Below are positions 32,308 to 36,877 of a stretch of DNA of 64,000 bases, in pieces. A model generated the notes under the pieces. That model had not been told where the DNA came from, made no database searches, and saw only the letters and a program-made list of their open reading frames with translations. The stretch comes from an uncultured Candidatus Poseidoniales archaeon (lineage in GTDB: Archaea > Thermoplasmatota > Poseidoniia > Poseidoniales > Poseidoniaceae). Where the stretch lies: positions 114-64,113 of the forward strand of contig CACEWA010000004.1 of the NCBI GenBank assembly GCA_902563095.1, read 5' to 3'. The first letter of the stretch is position 1, and every line of letters begins with the position of its first letter. The position numbers and the translations under genes were made by a program.

Positions 32308-32712
32308 GGTTATCTCCTTTAGGCCCACTAGAAGGCGGGTTTAGAACCCTGCGCTATAAAGTTCAGAGTAAATGAGTAAATGCAATAGATTTTCTACCAA
32401 AATTACTACTTAGTGCCATTTTCTTACAATGTGCATAATATGATATGCGGATTGAATAACATTGCATCAAAATAACAAAAATAAGGAAAATGAAGACGGA
32501 AAAATCAGTTTAATCTAAATTGCTAATGCGAACTAAACTGGGGAAAATGAGCTAATGGAGATCGCTCTCTTTTATGATTCAATGCAGTGCTTTGTTTAGA
32601 CAAAATATCGATATTTGTCCGCATGCTGACTCAAATTAAATGATGGCAAAACGATATGCACTATGCATTTTTACCTAGTAACATTGAATAGCAAGAGGTT
32701 AGACGAGGATGT

Positions 32713-33558
32713 ATGTTAGGCAATGATGGCTCTGCATGGCTCGAAAGGATGCATATGCAAATTGCTAGAAATTTGAAAGCATCCGATTGGTCTCAGGCTG
32801 AAATCGCAGAAATTTTGGGCTCAACACAGTCAACGATATCTCGTATGGCACACCGCGATTTACCACAAATGGCTGGGACATCTGATGAATCTACAATTGA
32901 TGACTGGGCTCATGAAATTTCTCTAGCACTCAGGCAGTTGGGCCCAGGTGCAAGGCCTAGTAGAACACGTTTTGTAATGGAAATCGCTTTTGCCCCAGGC
33001 CAAGTCCTGAGATTTGACAAATCGCTAACAGGTACAGATTTAGATTCAGATCAAGAGCAAACGGCGCTGCTAAAGAGGCTTGAGTGGGCTGTGTCTAGAA
33101 TAGATGTAAATCGTCTGAAGCCGTTTATGCCTACTGTGGGAATGAACATCGCTTGTTGCCTAGATAATTCACGTTCAATTGCAGAAGTTGCCGCATTTCC
33201 AGGTAAACTATCAATCGTGGGAAATAAATTACGCCACCACGAAACTCCTGCTTTCGGTGCATCTAATTATCTTGCAAACATGTTGATAGATGCAAGGGTG
33301 CATGATAGTTCTAAAACCGCAATTCTAAATATCCACCCTGGAGATAAATTAGAAAATATTGAAATTATTTGTGAAGAGTTAGACTTGAACTTAACTTTTG
33401 CAACAAAGGGTGAATTGACTCCCCACCAAGGCATAGATATTATTCTGGATGAAGGAGCATTTGGATGGGTTCCTTCACTATACATACTCGCTCACAACCC
33501 ACTCGAATTAGTTGATAGAATGCACCAAATCGTTTCACTTATTCATTCTAGAGCATGA
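32713..33558 (+). CDS. HTH domain fused to a ThiN-type (thiamine-phosphate synthase-like) domain; ThiR-like regulator candidate
   Basis: N-terminal HTH WSQAEIAEILGSTQSTISRMA. The C-terminal region has blocks I recognise from the ThiN family: FMPTVGMNIA, IAEVAAFPGKL, FGASNYLANMLI, AILNIHP, DEGAFGWVPSLYILAHNP. Confidence 0.6.
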   Translation: MLGNDGSAWLERMHMQIARNLKASDWSQAEIAEILGSTQSTISRMAHRDLPQMAGTSDESTIDDWAHEISLALRQLGPGARPSRTRFVMEIAFAPGQVLRFDKSLTGTDLDSDQEQTALLKRLEWAVSRIDVNRLKPFMPTVGMNIACCLDNSRSIAEVAAFPGKLSIVGNKLRHHETPAFGASNYLANMLIDARVHDSSKTAILNIHPGDKLENIEIICEELDLNLTFATKGELTPHQGIDIILDEGAFGWVPSLYILAHNPLELVDRMHQIVSLIHSRA

Positions 33559-33585
33559 TATATTCAATAACTAGGTACTCGACGA

Positions 33586-33670
33586 CGATTTGGGGAGCTT
33601 ATTGCTGAGAGGTCGTCTTCGGACGACGACCCACTGACCTGATTCGGGTAATGCCGGCGGAGGGAGAAAT
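33586..33670 (+). promoter_or_regulatory. TPP (THI-box) riboswitch
   Basis: All conserved aptamer blocks appear in the right order: GGGGAGC (33592-33598), uuauu, GCUGAGA, the P3 hairpin GGUCGUC-uucg-GACGAC, ACCC, ACCUGAU, GGGUAAUGCCGGCG and GAGGGA (to 33666). P1 is AUUU (33588-33591) pairing with AAAU (33667-33670), directly abutting the AUG at 33671. A TATA-like ATATATT lies at 33557-33563. Confidence 0.9.
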
Positions 33671-35170
33671 ATGGACACAAATATTGCATATGGATTGATG
33701 CTTGTAACGCTTGGTTTCTTTGGCTACATTGGATACCAAGCAGCGACCGAAAGAAAACTGGAAGCCGATGAATATCTCTCGGCCAGAGGTTCACAAGATT
33801 GGTTGAGAATTGGACTTAGCCTATTTGCTTCAGGTATGGGTATTTGGATTCTCTTTGGCCCCAGTGAAGTTGGATATTATGGTGGATTTTGGGATGTTGT
33901 CGGATACGCCGTATCAGCAGCAACCCCCTTCCTGTTACTCGCTTACGTGGGCCCTATGGTTCGTGATAAATTACCCGATGGTGTGACATTGGCAGACTAT
34001 GTTAGGATGAGAATCGGCAGACCTATGCAAATCTATGTCGGTGTGATTTCTGTAATCTACATGTTTACTTTCTTGTTTGCCGAATTTACTGCAATTGGAA
34101 AGGCTATGAGTGTGCTATCGGACATGGACCCATTGATTCCGATGATTGCAGTTGGTGCAGTCACCGTGGGTTATACTGCATATGGAGGGTTGCCTGCTTC
34201 ATTGCGAACCGATAGAATCCAGGCATGGGTTGTACTGTGGCTTGTCATTGCGCTATTGCTTTTCGTGTTCGCTGGAGACCTCAGCAATTTGATTTCAGAT
34301 GCAAAGGCATACAACCCAGAAGACGATTGGAGTATTGGGAGTATGTCTTATATGGATTCATTCAAATCTGGATTGGCCCTTGTAATTGCGATTACTGCAG
34401 CAGAAATGTTTTCTCAAGGTAATTGGCAGAGAGCTTGGGCATCTGAGAATAATGAAGCGCTCAAGAAAGGAGCTCTTCTTGCAGCCGGCCTTGTCCTACC
34501 TCTAGTCTTCATCATGGGTGTATTGGGAACTGTTGCCGCTGGTCAAGGCGCAGTCGATGACCCTTCAGCAGCATTCTTTACTCTACTGGAAGATGCACAC
34601 ATTTTGATTATCGCTGGATTTGTAGTCCTAGGAATAGCCTTAGTTTGTTCAAGTGTTGATACACTGCAAAACGCTGTTTCTGCTTCTATTACAAGAGACC
34701 TTTCAGACAATAAAATGAATCTGGATCAGGCAAGAATTGCAACCGTGGCGATGATTCCATTGGCCATTTACTTGGCGACAGGGCCTACAATTGGAAACTT
34801 TACTTTCGATGCTGCGAGCGTATTTGGCATATTCCTATTCGCTGATTTATTGGCTGCGGCCACGGTACTACCTGTTCTGCTCACACTCTCTGATCGAATC
34901 AAATCTAGGGCGGCTCTAGCGGGTGCAGTTTGTGGATTGCTTTCTGTTGTAATTTATGGAATGTATACTGCAGATTTGAGTACAGGTATTGGATACCTAA
35001 CCTCTCCAACCAATGAATTTGGCATGGCTAATCTAGAGGTTTTCGTATCTGCACTGTGCGGTTCAGGTTTAGTCACAATCATTGGTTCTGAATTAATTGG
35101 AATGCAAGAATTACCAAATATTCCAAATGAAGAAGTGGCAAATCAAGAAGGCAGTTCTGAATCTGAATAG
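33671..35170 (+). CDS. sodium:solute symporter (SSS)-like transporter, TPP-riboswitch controlled (candidate thiamine/thiazole-precursor importer)
   Basis: 499 aa and about 13 TM helices. The N-terminus YLSARGSQDWLRIGLSLFASGMGIWILFG resembles the SSS family start. It sits immediately downstream of the riboswitch. Confidence 0.55.
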   Translation: MDTNIAYGLMLVTLGFFGYIGYQAATERKLEADEYLSARGSQDWLRIGLSLFASGMGIWILFGPSEVGYYGGFWDVVGYAVSAATPFLLLAYVGPMVRDKLPDGVTLADYVRMRIGRPMQIYVGVISVIYMFTFLFAEFTAIGKAMSVLSDMDPLIPMIAVGAVTVGYTAYGGLPASLRTDRIQAWVVLWLVIALLLFVFAGDLSNLISDAKAYNPEDDWSIGSMSYMDSFKSGLALVIAITAAEMFSQGNWQRAWASENNEALKKGALLAAGLVLPLVFIMGVLGTVAAGQGAVDDPSAAFFTLLEDAHILIIAGFVVLGIALVCSSVDTLQNAVSASITRDLSDNKMNLDQARIATVAMIPLAIYLATGPTIGNFTFDAASVFGIFLFADLLAAATVLPVLLTLSDRIKSRAALAGAVCGLLSVVIYGMYTADLSTGIGYLTSPTNEFGMANLEVFVSALCGSGLVTIIGSELIGMQELPNIPNEEVANQEGSSESE

Positions 35171-35217: not shown

Positions 35218-35754
35218 ATGGTCGGAACTCCACTTGATGTTGTACCATACATTCGCGGGGTGCAATTAGTTCTCATAGGATACAATGGTTACACAAAGGG
35301 TTCTCGATTCGAAAACGACAAAATGGTGCGAGATGAAATTGTCCGTGCCGTTGGTAGAGTTCGAAGTCATATGCAGAATATTTTCGATAGTCAATTTAAG
35401 GATGAAAACCTGGAAATTGCACGTGCTGCGAAACAGTGTATGGAAGAATGCGATTACTTGATTGAAGATGTTCAAAAATCTGCATCAGGAATGGAACATG
35501 CATTCCTTTCAGGACAGAGGTCTCCTTCTAATCGTGATTTGAAAAAACTAATCAAACACGACCACGATGTCATTGACATGGTTACTAAAGCCGTCAATAT
35601 TGCAAACAGTGCAGAACTATCTACATCTACATCAGATGGCAATGCCAAGCAACTTACTATGCAAACAACACAGGTTCTTACCAGTTGCAAAGGATTTTTT
35701 GGTGCGAGAAAAAATATTCTCGCAGGATTGAAACAAAAGAAAGTGAAGAAGTGA
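35218..35754 (+). CDS. hypothetical helical protein
   Basis: 178-aa ORF, with an alternative start MVRDEIV at 35323. It looks predominantly helical and charged, and I recognised no motif. Its stop lies 4 nt before the next gene. Confidence 0.45.
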   Translation: MVGTPLDVVPYIRGVQLVLIGYNGYTKGSRFENDKMVRDEIVRAVGRVRSHMQNIFDSQFKDENLEIARAAKQCMEECDYLIEDVQKSASGMEHAFLSGQRSPSNRDLKKLIKHDHDVIDMVTKAVNIANSAELSTSTSDGNAKQLTMQTTQVLTSCKGFFGARKNILAGLKQKKVKK

Positions 35755-35758
35755 TTAA

Positions 35759-36877
35759 ATGACGAACTACAAATGGAGAGATAGCCCCGATATTGTCGCT
35801 AGATTGGTTAATGCAGACAAGATACAAAGCTTTGCCACTCAGCAAGTTTTGCTCAAGCCAAACGAAGCCTGCGCCCTTATTGTCGACGGTAGAATTGGAG
35901 ATGTAATTACTGAAACTCTGCTGAAAAGCATGGCAGGCGGATTTACAAGATGGATAGGAGACAAACTTGGAGTCACCGCTAATGATAGACGTTTACTCTT
36001 TGCAATGACTGGACCGATGGATTATTGGATCCCATTCGAAGGTCAAATCGCAGATGGGGAAAAGGTCACTGGGTTTGCTAACTTAAGGATGCGTTTGGAT
36101 TTGGAAGATGTACCAAAACTTCTGAACTATTTTGCAAATAATGACCCGGTTTTAACCAGAGATGGTGTAATCAAAATCATTGCTGATGAAGTAAAAGCGA
36201 GAGTAGTCACTCCAGCACTATCCTCGTGTGAAAGTGCCGCAGGGCTAAGAAGTGCCTCATTCCTTGAGATGTTCGATATGTCTGCTGAAAGTGGAATGAG
36301 AAATCTATTGTCTAATCTTGGCTTCACCCTATTGAAGGCATTCCCGATTACCAACCCTACGGATATGGAGTTGGTTCAAAGACATCGAGCCGCTGTTCAG
36401 GCAAAAATGTCTGGTGATGAAGCAGATGTTGAAGCACAACTTGCACAATATGCTCAAACTGAAGCATTGACATTGGCAAGAATCGAACTCGAGAATAAAG
36501 TTGCAAGAGCAAATGCTCGAGGTAAAGTAACTGTAGAACTAGAAAGTGAATTGAAAGAACTACGTGCTCAAGAGGCAAAATGGTCTGCAGAACTAGATTT
36601 TGAACGCGGGAAAATGCAAATTAGAATTGATGAATCCGATGCCAAAAACAAGCGAGCAATGGATATGTTTGCCGAGGTTCAGGCAAGAAAGGCGGAAAGG
36701 ATTGCAAACCAGCAAGAATTCCAAAAACAGAGAATGGATTCGCAAAACCAATTGCAAAAAGAGATCATGGAATTGGCAGCAGAACACGGAGCGCTAACAC
36801 CTGAAGTCATTCAAGAAATGCTTCGCCAGCAAACTGCACAGAAAGCAATCGACGGAAACGACGAAGATTCTGCATAA
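35759..36877 (+). CDS. SPFH/Band-7-like domain protein with long C-terminal coiled coil, no TM segment
   Basis: The N-terminal pattern QQVLLKPNEACALIVDGRIGDVITE resembles YdjI-type SPFH proteins. The C-terminal ~150 aa is E/A/Q/K-rich heptad-like sequence (ELESELKELRAQEAKWSAELDFERGKMQIRIDES...). Confidence 0.45.
   Translation: MTNYKWRDSPDIVARLVNADKIQSFATQQVLLKPNEACALIVDGRIGDVITETLLKSMAGGFTRWIGDKLGVTANDRRLLFAMTGPMDYWIPFEGQIADGEKVTGFANLRMRLDLEDVPKLLNYFANNDPVLTRDGVIKIIADEVKARVVTPALSSCESAAGLRSASFLEMFDMSAESGMRNLLSNLGFTLLKAFPITNPTDMELVQRHRAAVQAKMSGDEADVEAQLAQYAQTEALTLARIELENKVARANARGKVTVELESELKELRAQEAKWSAELDFERGKMQIRIDESDAKNKRAMDMFAEVQARKAERIANQQEFQKQRMDSQNQLQKEIMELAAEHGALTPEVIQEMLRQQTAQKAIDGNDEDSA

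Follow-up and report, generated by a model that had tools for sequence, protein, structure and literature searches.

A ThiR-type regulator gene beside a TPP riboswitch in a marine Poseidoniales archaeon: probable replacement of one thiamine uptake cassette by another

Introduction

In Archaea, the transcription factor ThiR and the thiamine pyrophosphate (TPP) riboswitch are regarded as alternative solutions, and the question is how both come to stand back to back in a 64,000-nucleotide stretch of DNA (hereafter the window) from a member of the Poseidoniales, or Marine Group II (MGII), whose source genome assembly measures 1.38 Mb and is 63% complete. Here, a gene for a 281-residue protein that joins a helix-turn-helix (HTH) to a ThiN domain, referred to below as thiR, is followed by a TPP riboswitch and by a gene for a transporter of the solute:sodium symporter (SSS) family. 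The explanation that we consider probable is that thiR encodes a ThiR-type regulator in a thiamine auxotroph, behind which a riboswitch-importer cassette of the sister family f3 has replaced the ATP-binding cassette (ABC) importer operon thiBPQ. The two regulators would then be neighbours through the displacement of one uptake cassette by another, rather than as parts of a circuit that arose together.

The arrangement was first noticed in a first-pass annotation made from the letters of the sequence, and it has proved to be real, in that the open reading frame (ORF), its ThiN domain and the adjoining riboswitch have all been verified and the peptide blocks then quoted (WSQAEIAEILGSTQSTISR, FMPTVGMNIA, FPGKL, FGASNY and DEGAFGWVP) are all present in the 281-residue translation. 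The stop codon of thiR ends at 33558, the Rfam match begins 22 nt further on, and the GGGGAGC core of the riboswitch lies 33 nt on, at 33592. This is not an assembly artefact, because the same arrangement has been found again in independent assemblies, namely the genomes G100, G405 and G157 and the contigs L091-L097 from ENA, JGI, TARA and NCBI. The closest homologues of the protein belong to 'Candidatus Poseidoniales' or Marine Group II archaea.

Regulator or enzyme

The C-terminal part of the protein matches the Pfam ThiN profile (PF10120, residues 123-270) with an E value of 3.5e-23 and a score of 82.6 bits (cut-off 25), which bears out the ThiR-type HTH-ThiN reading that had been proposed beforehand. 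Both HTH_37 and HTH_3 match residues 15-50, each below its own cut-off, and the ThiDN model of NCBIfam is matched in part only. In the structure that AlphaFold2 predicts from 31 sequences (pLDDT 81.7), the N-terminal HTH region is helical, with helices at residues 28-35 and 39-47, and the C-terminal half superposes on 2php and 2pb9 (Foldseek E values of 1e-12 and 7e-11, respectively). The protein can be aligned end to end, HTH segment included, with ThiR-like proteins of other archaea, and it has their architecture, that is an HTH and a ThiN-like domain in about 270-300 residues with no ThiD kinase domain. Linkage to uptake genes is also that of ThiR, as thiR precedes thiBPQ in relatives, an SSS gene in the genome G064, and the riboswitch with its SSS gene in the window. 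Judged by domain content, fold and linkage, the 281-residue protein is a ThiR-type transcription factor with an XRE-like HTH and a non-catalytic ThiN sensor domain. The gene is under strong purifying selection, with dN/dS values of 0.03-0.06 in both domains that equal those of neighbouring genes, at saturated dS.

The ThiN residues have been compared across 38 diverse ThiN-domain proteins, comprising ThiR-like proteins, ThiDN proteins of about 440-480 residues and two short ThiN-only proteins of about 180-190 residues; characterised ThiR sequences could not be placed by name within this alignment. In the window's numbering, Arg165, His186 and Glu253 each reach an invariance of at least 90% over the ThiR, ThiDN and ThiN sequences together, and in their place the window protein has Lys165, Tyr186 (codon 33268-33270) and Val253 (codon 33469-33471), so that the residues of ThiN that typically bind thiamine phosphate are not conserved in it. 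The spacing between the Arg and His positions is 21 residues, as in 2pb9, and we take the aligned pair to be the catalytic Arg320 and His341 of the Pyrobaculum enzyme, both of which are reportedly essential for catalysis by Pyrobaculum ThiN. The block that reads FGASNY in the window protein is FGAS[DE]H in 2pb9 and MJ0236, and PGK stands against G-R. The ThiDN proteins and P0237, one of the two short ThiN-only proteins, have in common a segment made up of E-G-S-x-[LM]-x-[WF]-G and a helix, which is missing from every ThiR-like sequence in the alignment, the window's included; ThiR is said to have a shorter helix and to be without a Met needed for catalysis. Compared with the ThiN/ThiDN synthases of Pyrococcus furiosus (2pb9) and Methanocaldococcus jannaschii (2php, MJ0236), the window protein thus shares the fold (TM score 0.75, normalised to the target) and the motifs PG[RK], FGAS and G.[FG].[WK].P, but it differs in having no ThiD fusion, in its Tyr, Lys and Val, in the absence of the extra segment, and in a host that would have no supply of hydroxymethylpyrimidine pyrophosphate (HMP-PP).

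This last difference has been drawn from Pfam profile searches for thiamine enzymes over 31 relatives, with a set of 14 genomes as control for ThiD. ThiD (PF08543) was found in 1 of the 31 relatives, and there at the cut-off (27.2 against 27 bits), but in 14 of the 14 controls, and ThiE (PF02581) above its cut-off in none of the 31. Thiamine pyrophosphokinase (TPK, PF04263) was matched in 30 of them, 27 above the cut-off; the sole miss was the window's own genome, which is 63% complete. An order with TPK and neither ThiD nor ThiE points to the salvage of intact thiamine: Poseidoniales hosts would be unable to make HMP-PP or thiamine monophosphate (TMP), and would import thiamine intact and convert it to TPP by means of TPK. 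In such a host a ThiN synthase would be without substrate.

The first-pass annotation had also allowed that ThiN catalysis might be retained, in which case the protein, as an enzyme or a bifunctional one, would be the only TMP synthase of the cell. The check for another such synthase might seem to favour this, as the genome has no ThiN-domain gene besides thiR (at most one such ORF per genome, of about 280-295 residues, was found in the Poseidoniales survey) and no ThiE scored above its cut-off. However, the catalytic His is a Tyr, its partner Arg a Lys and Glu253 a Val, the segment shared by ThiDN and P0237 is missing, the HMP-PP maker ThiD is so rare among the relatives, and the TPK route from thiamine to TPP needs no TMP synthase. 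The enzyme reading is therefore rejected, because of the Tyr at the catalytic His and because the order is without ThiD or ThiE, and the chance that we would still give it is negligible.

Probable replacement of the importer behind thiR

Across the genus, thiR lies in a conserved gene order, in which a divergent pyridoxal-phosphate (PLP) decarboxylase gene and thiR are followed by a variable slot and then by the genes o178, o372 and PAP2. In eight genomes (G010, G108, G066, G038, G112, G116, G132 and G072) and in the P0087 contig, the slot holds a thiBPQ-type ABC importer, made up of a substrate-binding protein of 364-377 residues, a fused double permease of about 555 residues and an ATPase of about 195 residues. 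Here thiR and the importer lie close together, from a 4-nt overlap (the frames overlap in G010) to about 35 nt, with gaps of 10-35 nt elsewhere. The slot is empty in G104, and it holds the riboswitch and SSS gene in the window's genome (G000), in G100, G405 and G157, and in the P0021 and P0002 contigs. In G064, which belongs to another genus of the same family, an SSS gene whose product is 68% identical to the window's (L073:773-1646) begins 12 nt after thiR with no riboswitch between them, which looks like a riboswitch-type cassette that has been brought under ThiR control. No ThiB or ThiP homologue was found elsewhere in the assembled window genome (63% complete). The right border of the slot (35218-36877) is formed by genes of 178 and 372 residues, 4 nt apart and with no Pfam match, and this pair is syntenic in most of the genus genomes examined.

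The transporter in the slot of the window matches PF00474 (E 8e-19) and TIGR00813 (E 3e-25). In SAR11, an SSS-family symporter for hydroxymethylpyrimidine (HMP) or thiamine, ThiV, is encoded behind a TPP riboswitch (PMC11452348). The window resembles that system in that a TPP riboswitch precedes an SSS gene and the host is an auxotroph of the marine plankton, and it differs in that its host is without ThiD and ThiE; the likeness is one of family and context, not of measured sequence relatedness. As HMP would be useless to a host with neither ThiD nor ThiE, intact thiamine is the likelier substrate, and the transporter is probably a thiamine importer.

The origin of the riboswitch-transporter unit has been traced to the sister family f3. 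Of the 30 riboswitch loci retrieved from that family, 28 have the RNA in front of an SSS gene with 60-87% identity to that of the window, and the unit there sits after an unrelated gene, for an aldehyde dehydrogenase. In a tree of the transporters, the window sequence groups with those of G100 and of the f3 genome G129 (SH-aLRT 97), and this group is nested in an f3 clade (SH-aLRT 99). The window protein is 86.6% identical to that of G129, and the genes that flank the latter reach only 25-63% identity in the window's genome. The riboswitch-less transporter of G064 is sister to the riboswitch-bearing copy of another f3 genome, G049. From this distribution we infer that the cassette was acquired horizontally from f3 at least twice, and that it replaced thiBPQ in the lineage of the window. 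The GC and GC3 contents of the transporter gene match those of its neighbours and give no base-composition sign of transfer. Among the f3 loci themselves (L003-L032), the transporter tree ignores genus labels, with g12, g14 and g21 interleaved, and the cassette may move often within Poseidoniales.

A riboswitch unit with its own predicted promoter

The match of the RNA to RF00059 has 53.9 bits and an E value of 5.7e-10, and lies 0.4 bit under the gathering score of 54.3; orthologous RNAs score up to 66.7 bits, and 33 of the 45 in the order are above the gathering score. All the motifs of the aptamer core are present (CUGAGA, and ACCUGAU...GGUAAUGCC...GCGGAGGGA), and among 20 orthologues the helices P2-P5 comprise 20 predicted pairs, of which 8 show compensatory changes. 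No consensus P1 helix is predicted in these 20 orthologues and the P1 positions of Rfam are non-canonical, so that the riboswitch is, on comparative evidence, a P1-less variant. The 3' arm of P4 contains a Shine-Dalgarno-like GGAGG (33659-33663), which the transporter ATG at 33671 follows after 7 nt, and as the ribosome-binding site (RBS) is thus within this arm there would be no separate expression platform. It has been described that TPP riboswitches act on translation initiation in Thermoplasmatales, and that they precede thiV in SAR11 (PMC11452348, PMC10881298). In the window, too, the riboswitch stands directly before the SSS start codon, as the leader of a probable thiamine gene, which is its position in 28 sister-family loci. 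The minimum-free-energy fold of the single RNA has a z-score of 0.09 against shuffled sequences and pairs promoter DNA with the P3 arm; it was not used.

The window, G100 and most of 30 sister-family loci have a TATA-like box (ATGTTGAATA, ATATTCAATAAC or similar) that precedes the aptamer core by about 20-30 nt, and the sister-family riboswitch loci with that box have no thiR. The riboswitch-transporter unit is thus predicted to bring its own promoter, with a transcript that would start at the aptamer, and a ThiR-independent transcript is to be expected from so conserved a box. A start at the aptamer would also fit an RNA for which no consensus P1 is predicted. Compared with the known TPP riboswitch (the THI element, RF00059), the RNA of the window has in common the core, the covarying P2-P5 and the place in the leader of an SSS thiamine/HMP transporter gene; it differs in having no P1, in an RBS within the 3' arm of P4, in a predicted start at the aptamer, in adjoining a ThiR gene and in a score 0.4 bit below the Rfam gathering threshold.

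Three short contigs from marine metatranscriptomes lie inside the transporter gene. Two of them, from different studies (33666-33926), begin at 33666 and 33674, at the start codon of the transporter; none covers thiR, and the data are few.

The thiR promoter and its candidate operator

In essentially all of the roughly 40 family-f1 loci examined, the palindrome ATGCA-N3-TGCAT lies at a constant distance from the thiR start. The copy in the window is the only exact one in the window's genome, where copies with up to two mismatches also lack a promoter context. In 12 genomes, exact palindromes elsewhere have no promoter context and look like chance occurrences, and further members of a ThiR regulon have therefore been discarded as candidates. 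Together with the promoter box, the palindrome is perfectly kept in the five cassette-bearing loci of the window's ThiR clade whose sequence extends to the thiR promoter, those of the window, G100 (with the near-identical L091), G405 and the two contigs P0021 and P0002; in G157, the contig stops short of the thiR promoter. A conserved palindrome in its own promoter is what would be expected of a ThiR operator, and binding of ThiR to it is likely. The ThiR of this family would, we conclude, act locally, on the uptake operon to which its gene belongs, with binding and the sign of its effect read from position and conservation.

The word TTGAATA, which recurs at the thiR promoter, was considered as a ThiR half-site. 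This was rejected, because it and related words are enriched at -32 to -27 of start codons throughout the genome and belong to the ordinary promoter. This enrichment (e.g. at 32683-32691 and 33560-33571) suggests a TATA-like box of Poseidoniales and mostly leaderless mRNAs, and the thiR mRNA is itself probably leaderless. Neither of the two intervals put forward earlier for DNA binding has held in its original form. In 32590-32670, a near-palindrome in the spacer between the decarboxylase gene and thiR (GACAAAATATCGATATTTGTC, 32599-32619) is strain-specific, being absent from G100, G405 and the P0021 and P0002 contigs, and the conserved palindrome is the one given in Table 1; the interval 33556-33590 is promoter-box DNA of the riboswitch unit.

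Table 1. Features of the thiR-riboswitch-transporter locus, in window coordinates
Feature	Position	Strand	Remarks
Candidate ThiR operator, palindrome ATGCACTATGCAT (ATGCA-N3-TGCAT)	32656..32668		-57..-45 from the thiR ATG
TATA-like box ATTGAATAG of thiR	32683..32691	+	29 nt upstream of the ATG; kept in every thiR locus
thiR	32713..33558	+	281 aa; HTH at about residues 26-47, ThiN-like sensor domain at residues 123-270
TATA-like box ATATTCAATAAC of the riboswitch-transporter unit	33560..33571	+	predicted transcription start near 33590, at the aptamer
TPP riboswitch (Rfam match)	33581..33683	+	RF00059; aptamer core about 33592 to 33665
SSS-family (ThiV-like) transporter gene	33671..35170	+	499 aa; PF00474, TIGR00813; riboswitch cargo gene

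Rarity of the combination

Among 151 species genomes of the order, the riboswitch was found in 45 (43 of them in f3) and ThiN in 80 (74 in f1), with both in only two, the window's genome and its sister species G100 (Fisher p 3e-16). Among 301 genomes of the phylum Thermoplasmatota, 34 have the riboswitch, 229 have ThiN and the window's alone has both (p 9e-23), and no ThiN-domain ORF was found in any of the 22 riboswitch genomes outside Poseidoniales in that survey. In 38 genomes of the genus, searched with sensitive filters, the riboswitch was found in 4, a count that covers the riboswitch alone. These surveys sustain the statement of the first-pass annotation that ThiR and TPP riboswitches occur in separate archaeal lineages, and co-residence of the two is thus unusual.

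A changed ligand pocket in the hybrid clade

The ThiR sequences of MGII, 159 in all, have been aligned and divided into a clade of 27 sequences, to which the window protein belongs, and 132 others. A conservation of at least 90% in the 132 others, together with a different fixed residue in the clade, is seen in two columns only, H186Y and E253V. The clade is monophyletic and every member of known context carries the cassette, while ThiR proteins of the same genus outside the clade retain both His and Glu. Within it, the invariant Pro254 is changed as well in G100, and P0020 has Ile at 253. Taken across the alignment, the change of the pocket is real and specific to the clade. The genome G157 has the cassette behind a ThiR with unchanged His and Glu, which is placed elsewhere in the tree; to force all cassette-linked ThiR proteins into a single clade costs 18.5 log-likelihood units and is not rejected (approximately unbiased (AU) test, p 0.083).

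Three loci around this comparison may be described on their own account. The thiR of G157 (L121, G157:C22) has X residues, that is N in the DNA, at about positions 193-200, after FGASNH, and its contig ends 5 codons into the gene, so that the exception made by this genome depends on a sequence of imperfect quality. On the Logan contig L119:243-5582, P0160, an HTH-ThiN protein with the Lys/Tyr combination, heads an operon of thiF, a thiO-like gene, thiS, thiG, thiE and an SSS gene, so that the Tyr variant is met ahead of a complete thiazole/TMP-synthase operon as well. In the P0123 clade of MGII (L117:4501-6145), Glu253 is changed to Val and His186 is kept; PAP2 comes next, with no transporter downstream, and thiR sits after an aspartate decarboxylase gene and not the PLP-decarboxylase gene.

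Discussion

The observations above can be joined in the following way, which we hold to be probable. In nearly every relative within the family, thiR heads a thiR-thiBPQ uptake operon read from a probably leaderless promoter, with the palindrome as its likely operator, and ThiR bound there would exert feedback repression of uptake, and would regulate itself. For the genus this is the common state, to which the riboswitch cassette would be a newcomer. In the lineage of the window, the ABC importer would have been swapped for a self-contained module with its own TATA-like box, a P1-less riboswitch and an SSS importer. The importer would now be transcribed mainly from its own promoter and gated at translation by the aptamer, with TPP stabilising the aptamer so that the RBS is hidden and translation is turned off, a step of RBS occlusion that we deduce from the position of the Shine-Dalgarno-like sequence. 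ThiR would at a minimum autoregulate, and its maintenance can be read from purifying selection and the intact operator. Some transcripts begun at thiR may run on through the riboswitch and the transporter gene and so add a share that depends on ThiR, and only in this sense might the dual-layer idea of the first-pass annotation hold.

Several points weigh against this account. The palindrome lies upstream of the TATA-like box and immediately before the expected BRE, whereas the sites of simple repressors more often overlap these elements or lie downstream, which leaves the sign of the ThiR effect uncertain. The direction of the transfer rests on the distribution of the cassette and on nesting in a midpoint-rooted tree, the metatranscriptome contigs cover just pieces of the transporter and are uninformative on start sites or read-through, and, with the genome 63% complete, a thiBPQ operon that has moved elsewhere or additional targets of ThiR may have escaped notice. 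Wherever a survey took in more than 40 genomes, Infernal was run with stricter filters, by which weak riboswitch matches may be lost. Finally, there is no oligo-T terminator in the 22 nt between the thiR stop and the Rfam match, and co-transcription or read-through is therefore plausible.

The absence of a T-run in so short a gap is also the starting point of a competing explanation, in which thiR, riboswitch and transporter form one unit under integrated control, with ThiR repressing transcription at the thiR promoter and the riboswitch repressing translation. This is close to the dual-layer arrangement that the first-pass annotation had proposed. In relatives, a transporter does follow thiR directly (with overlap in G010 and gaps of 10-35 nt elsewhere), and G064, with the same SSS gene 12 nt behind thiR and no riboswitch, indicates that ThiR-driven transcription of the transporter exists in the family. 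Against this, the TATA-like box of the riboswitch unit lies at the distance seen in the sister family, in loci that have no ThiR, which leads one to expect a transcript independent of ThiR; the neighbourhood of the box is free of ThiR palindromes, and the metatranscriptome contigs, all inside the transporter, do not link the two genes. As a partial and additive effect, such control would moreover be compatible with replacement of the cassette. We regard fully integrated control as a minority possibility and read the juxtaposition best as a cassette replacement, a reading which departs from the dual-layer arrangement as first conceived.

Two further explanations concern the state of ThiR itself. 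One is that ThiR was re-tuned or made blind to its ligand after the riboswitch took over TPP feedback, by H186Y and E253V on a Lys165 background, and would now sense another vitamer or bind DNA independently of a ligand. The two substituted positions are the sole clade-fixed columns and are at least 90% invariant in all aligned ThiN proteins, the clade is monophyletic with the riboswitch cassette in every member of known context, extra changes occur in G100 (Pro254) and P0020 (Ile253), and the ThiN domain is still under purifying selection. On the other hand, a single evolutionary event underlies the association, which may be coincidence; G157 has the cassette with His and Glu unchanged; the Lys/Tyr protein P0160 at the head of a thiF-thiO-thiS-thiG-thiE operon suggests that thiamine genes may still be regulated by Tyr variants; and the Glu-to-Val change of P0123 occurs without a riboswitch. 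This explanation is doubtful as it stands. The other, that ThiR is a functionless relic left after thiBPQ was replaced, could appeal to the altered pocket residues and to the fact that, in the genome as assembled, the thiR promoter is the one target to be detected, but it is hard to reconcile with a frame that is intact in 27 of 27 clade sequences, with dN/dS values of 0.03-0.06 in both domains, like those of neighbouring genes, over lineages that have diverged to about 85% identity, and with the perfectly kept palindrome and promoter box of the five clade loci. It is very unlikely.

Cassette replacement can be extended to a more general proposal, which we offer as speculative: the locus would be an intermediate of regulator turnover, in which f3 thiV cassettes repeatedly land behind thiR and some lose the riboswitch and pass under ThiR control, as in G064, and in which the pocket has here been re-tuned so that the uptake of thiamine (vitamin B1) is controlled by two inputs. 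If this were true, ThiR and the RNA would read different vitamers, or ThiR would act independently of a ligand.

Comparison with known ThiR proteins

ThiR, described in Haloferax volcanii and Metallosphaera yellowstonensis, is reportedly an archaeal thiamine repressor, and ThiR regulons are said to have been predicted. With known ThiR, the protein of the window has in common an N-terminal HTH and a C-terminal ThiN-like domain in about 280 residues without ThiD, linkage to thiamine transporters, and a palindrome in its own promoter. It and its clade are set apart by the Lys/Tyr/Val pocket, by what appears to be a regulon of a single uptake operon in an auxotroph, and by a TPP riboswitch downstream. 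To our knowledge, Poseidoniales (Thermoplasmatota) is not among the lineages for which ThiR has been described. In full-text searches no paper was found that links ThiR, TPP riboswitches and Poseidoniales, the key 2017 ThiR papers lying outside the texts searched. All parts of the locus come from known families; the hybrid locus, the broken exclusivity, the cassette swap and the altered pocket appear undescribed in the searchable literature.

Significance

The near-perfect mutual exclusivity of ThiR and TPP riboswitch holds across about 450 Thermoplasmatota genomes, and this small clade is the exception to it. As a natural double variant, with His changed to Tyr and Glu to Val, the clade bears on which residues of ThiN sense thiamine phosphates. 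The locus also bears on how the uptake of vitamin B1 is wired in a group that ranks among the most abundant marine planktonic archaea and whose members are, by their gene inventories, obligate scavengers of thiamine, and the clade would let one study in nature how a regulatory protein and an RNA sensor for one pathway come to replace each other or to coexist.

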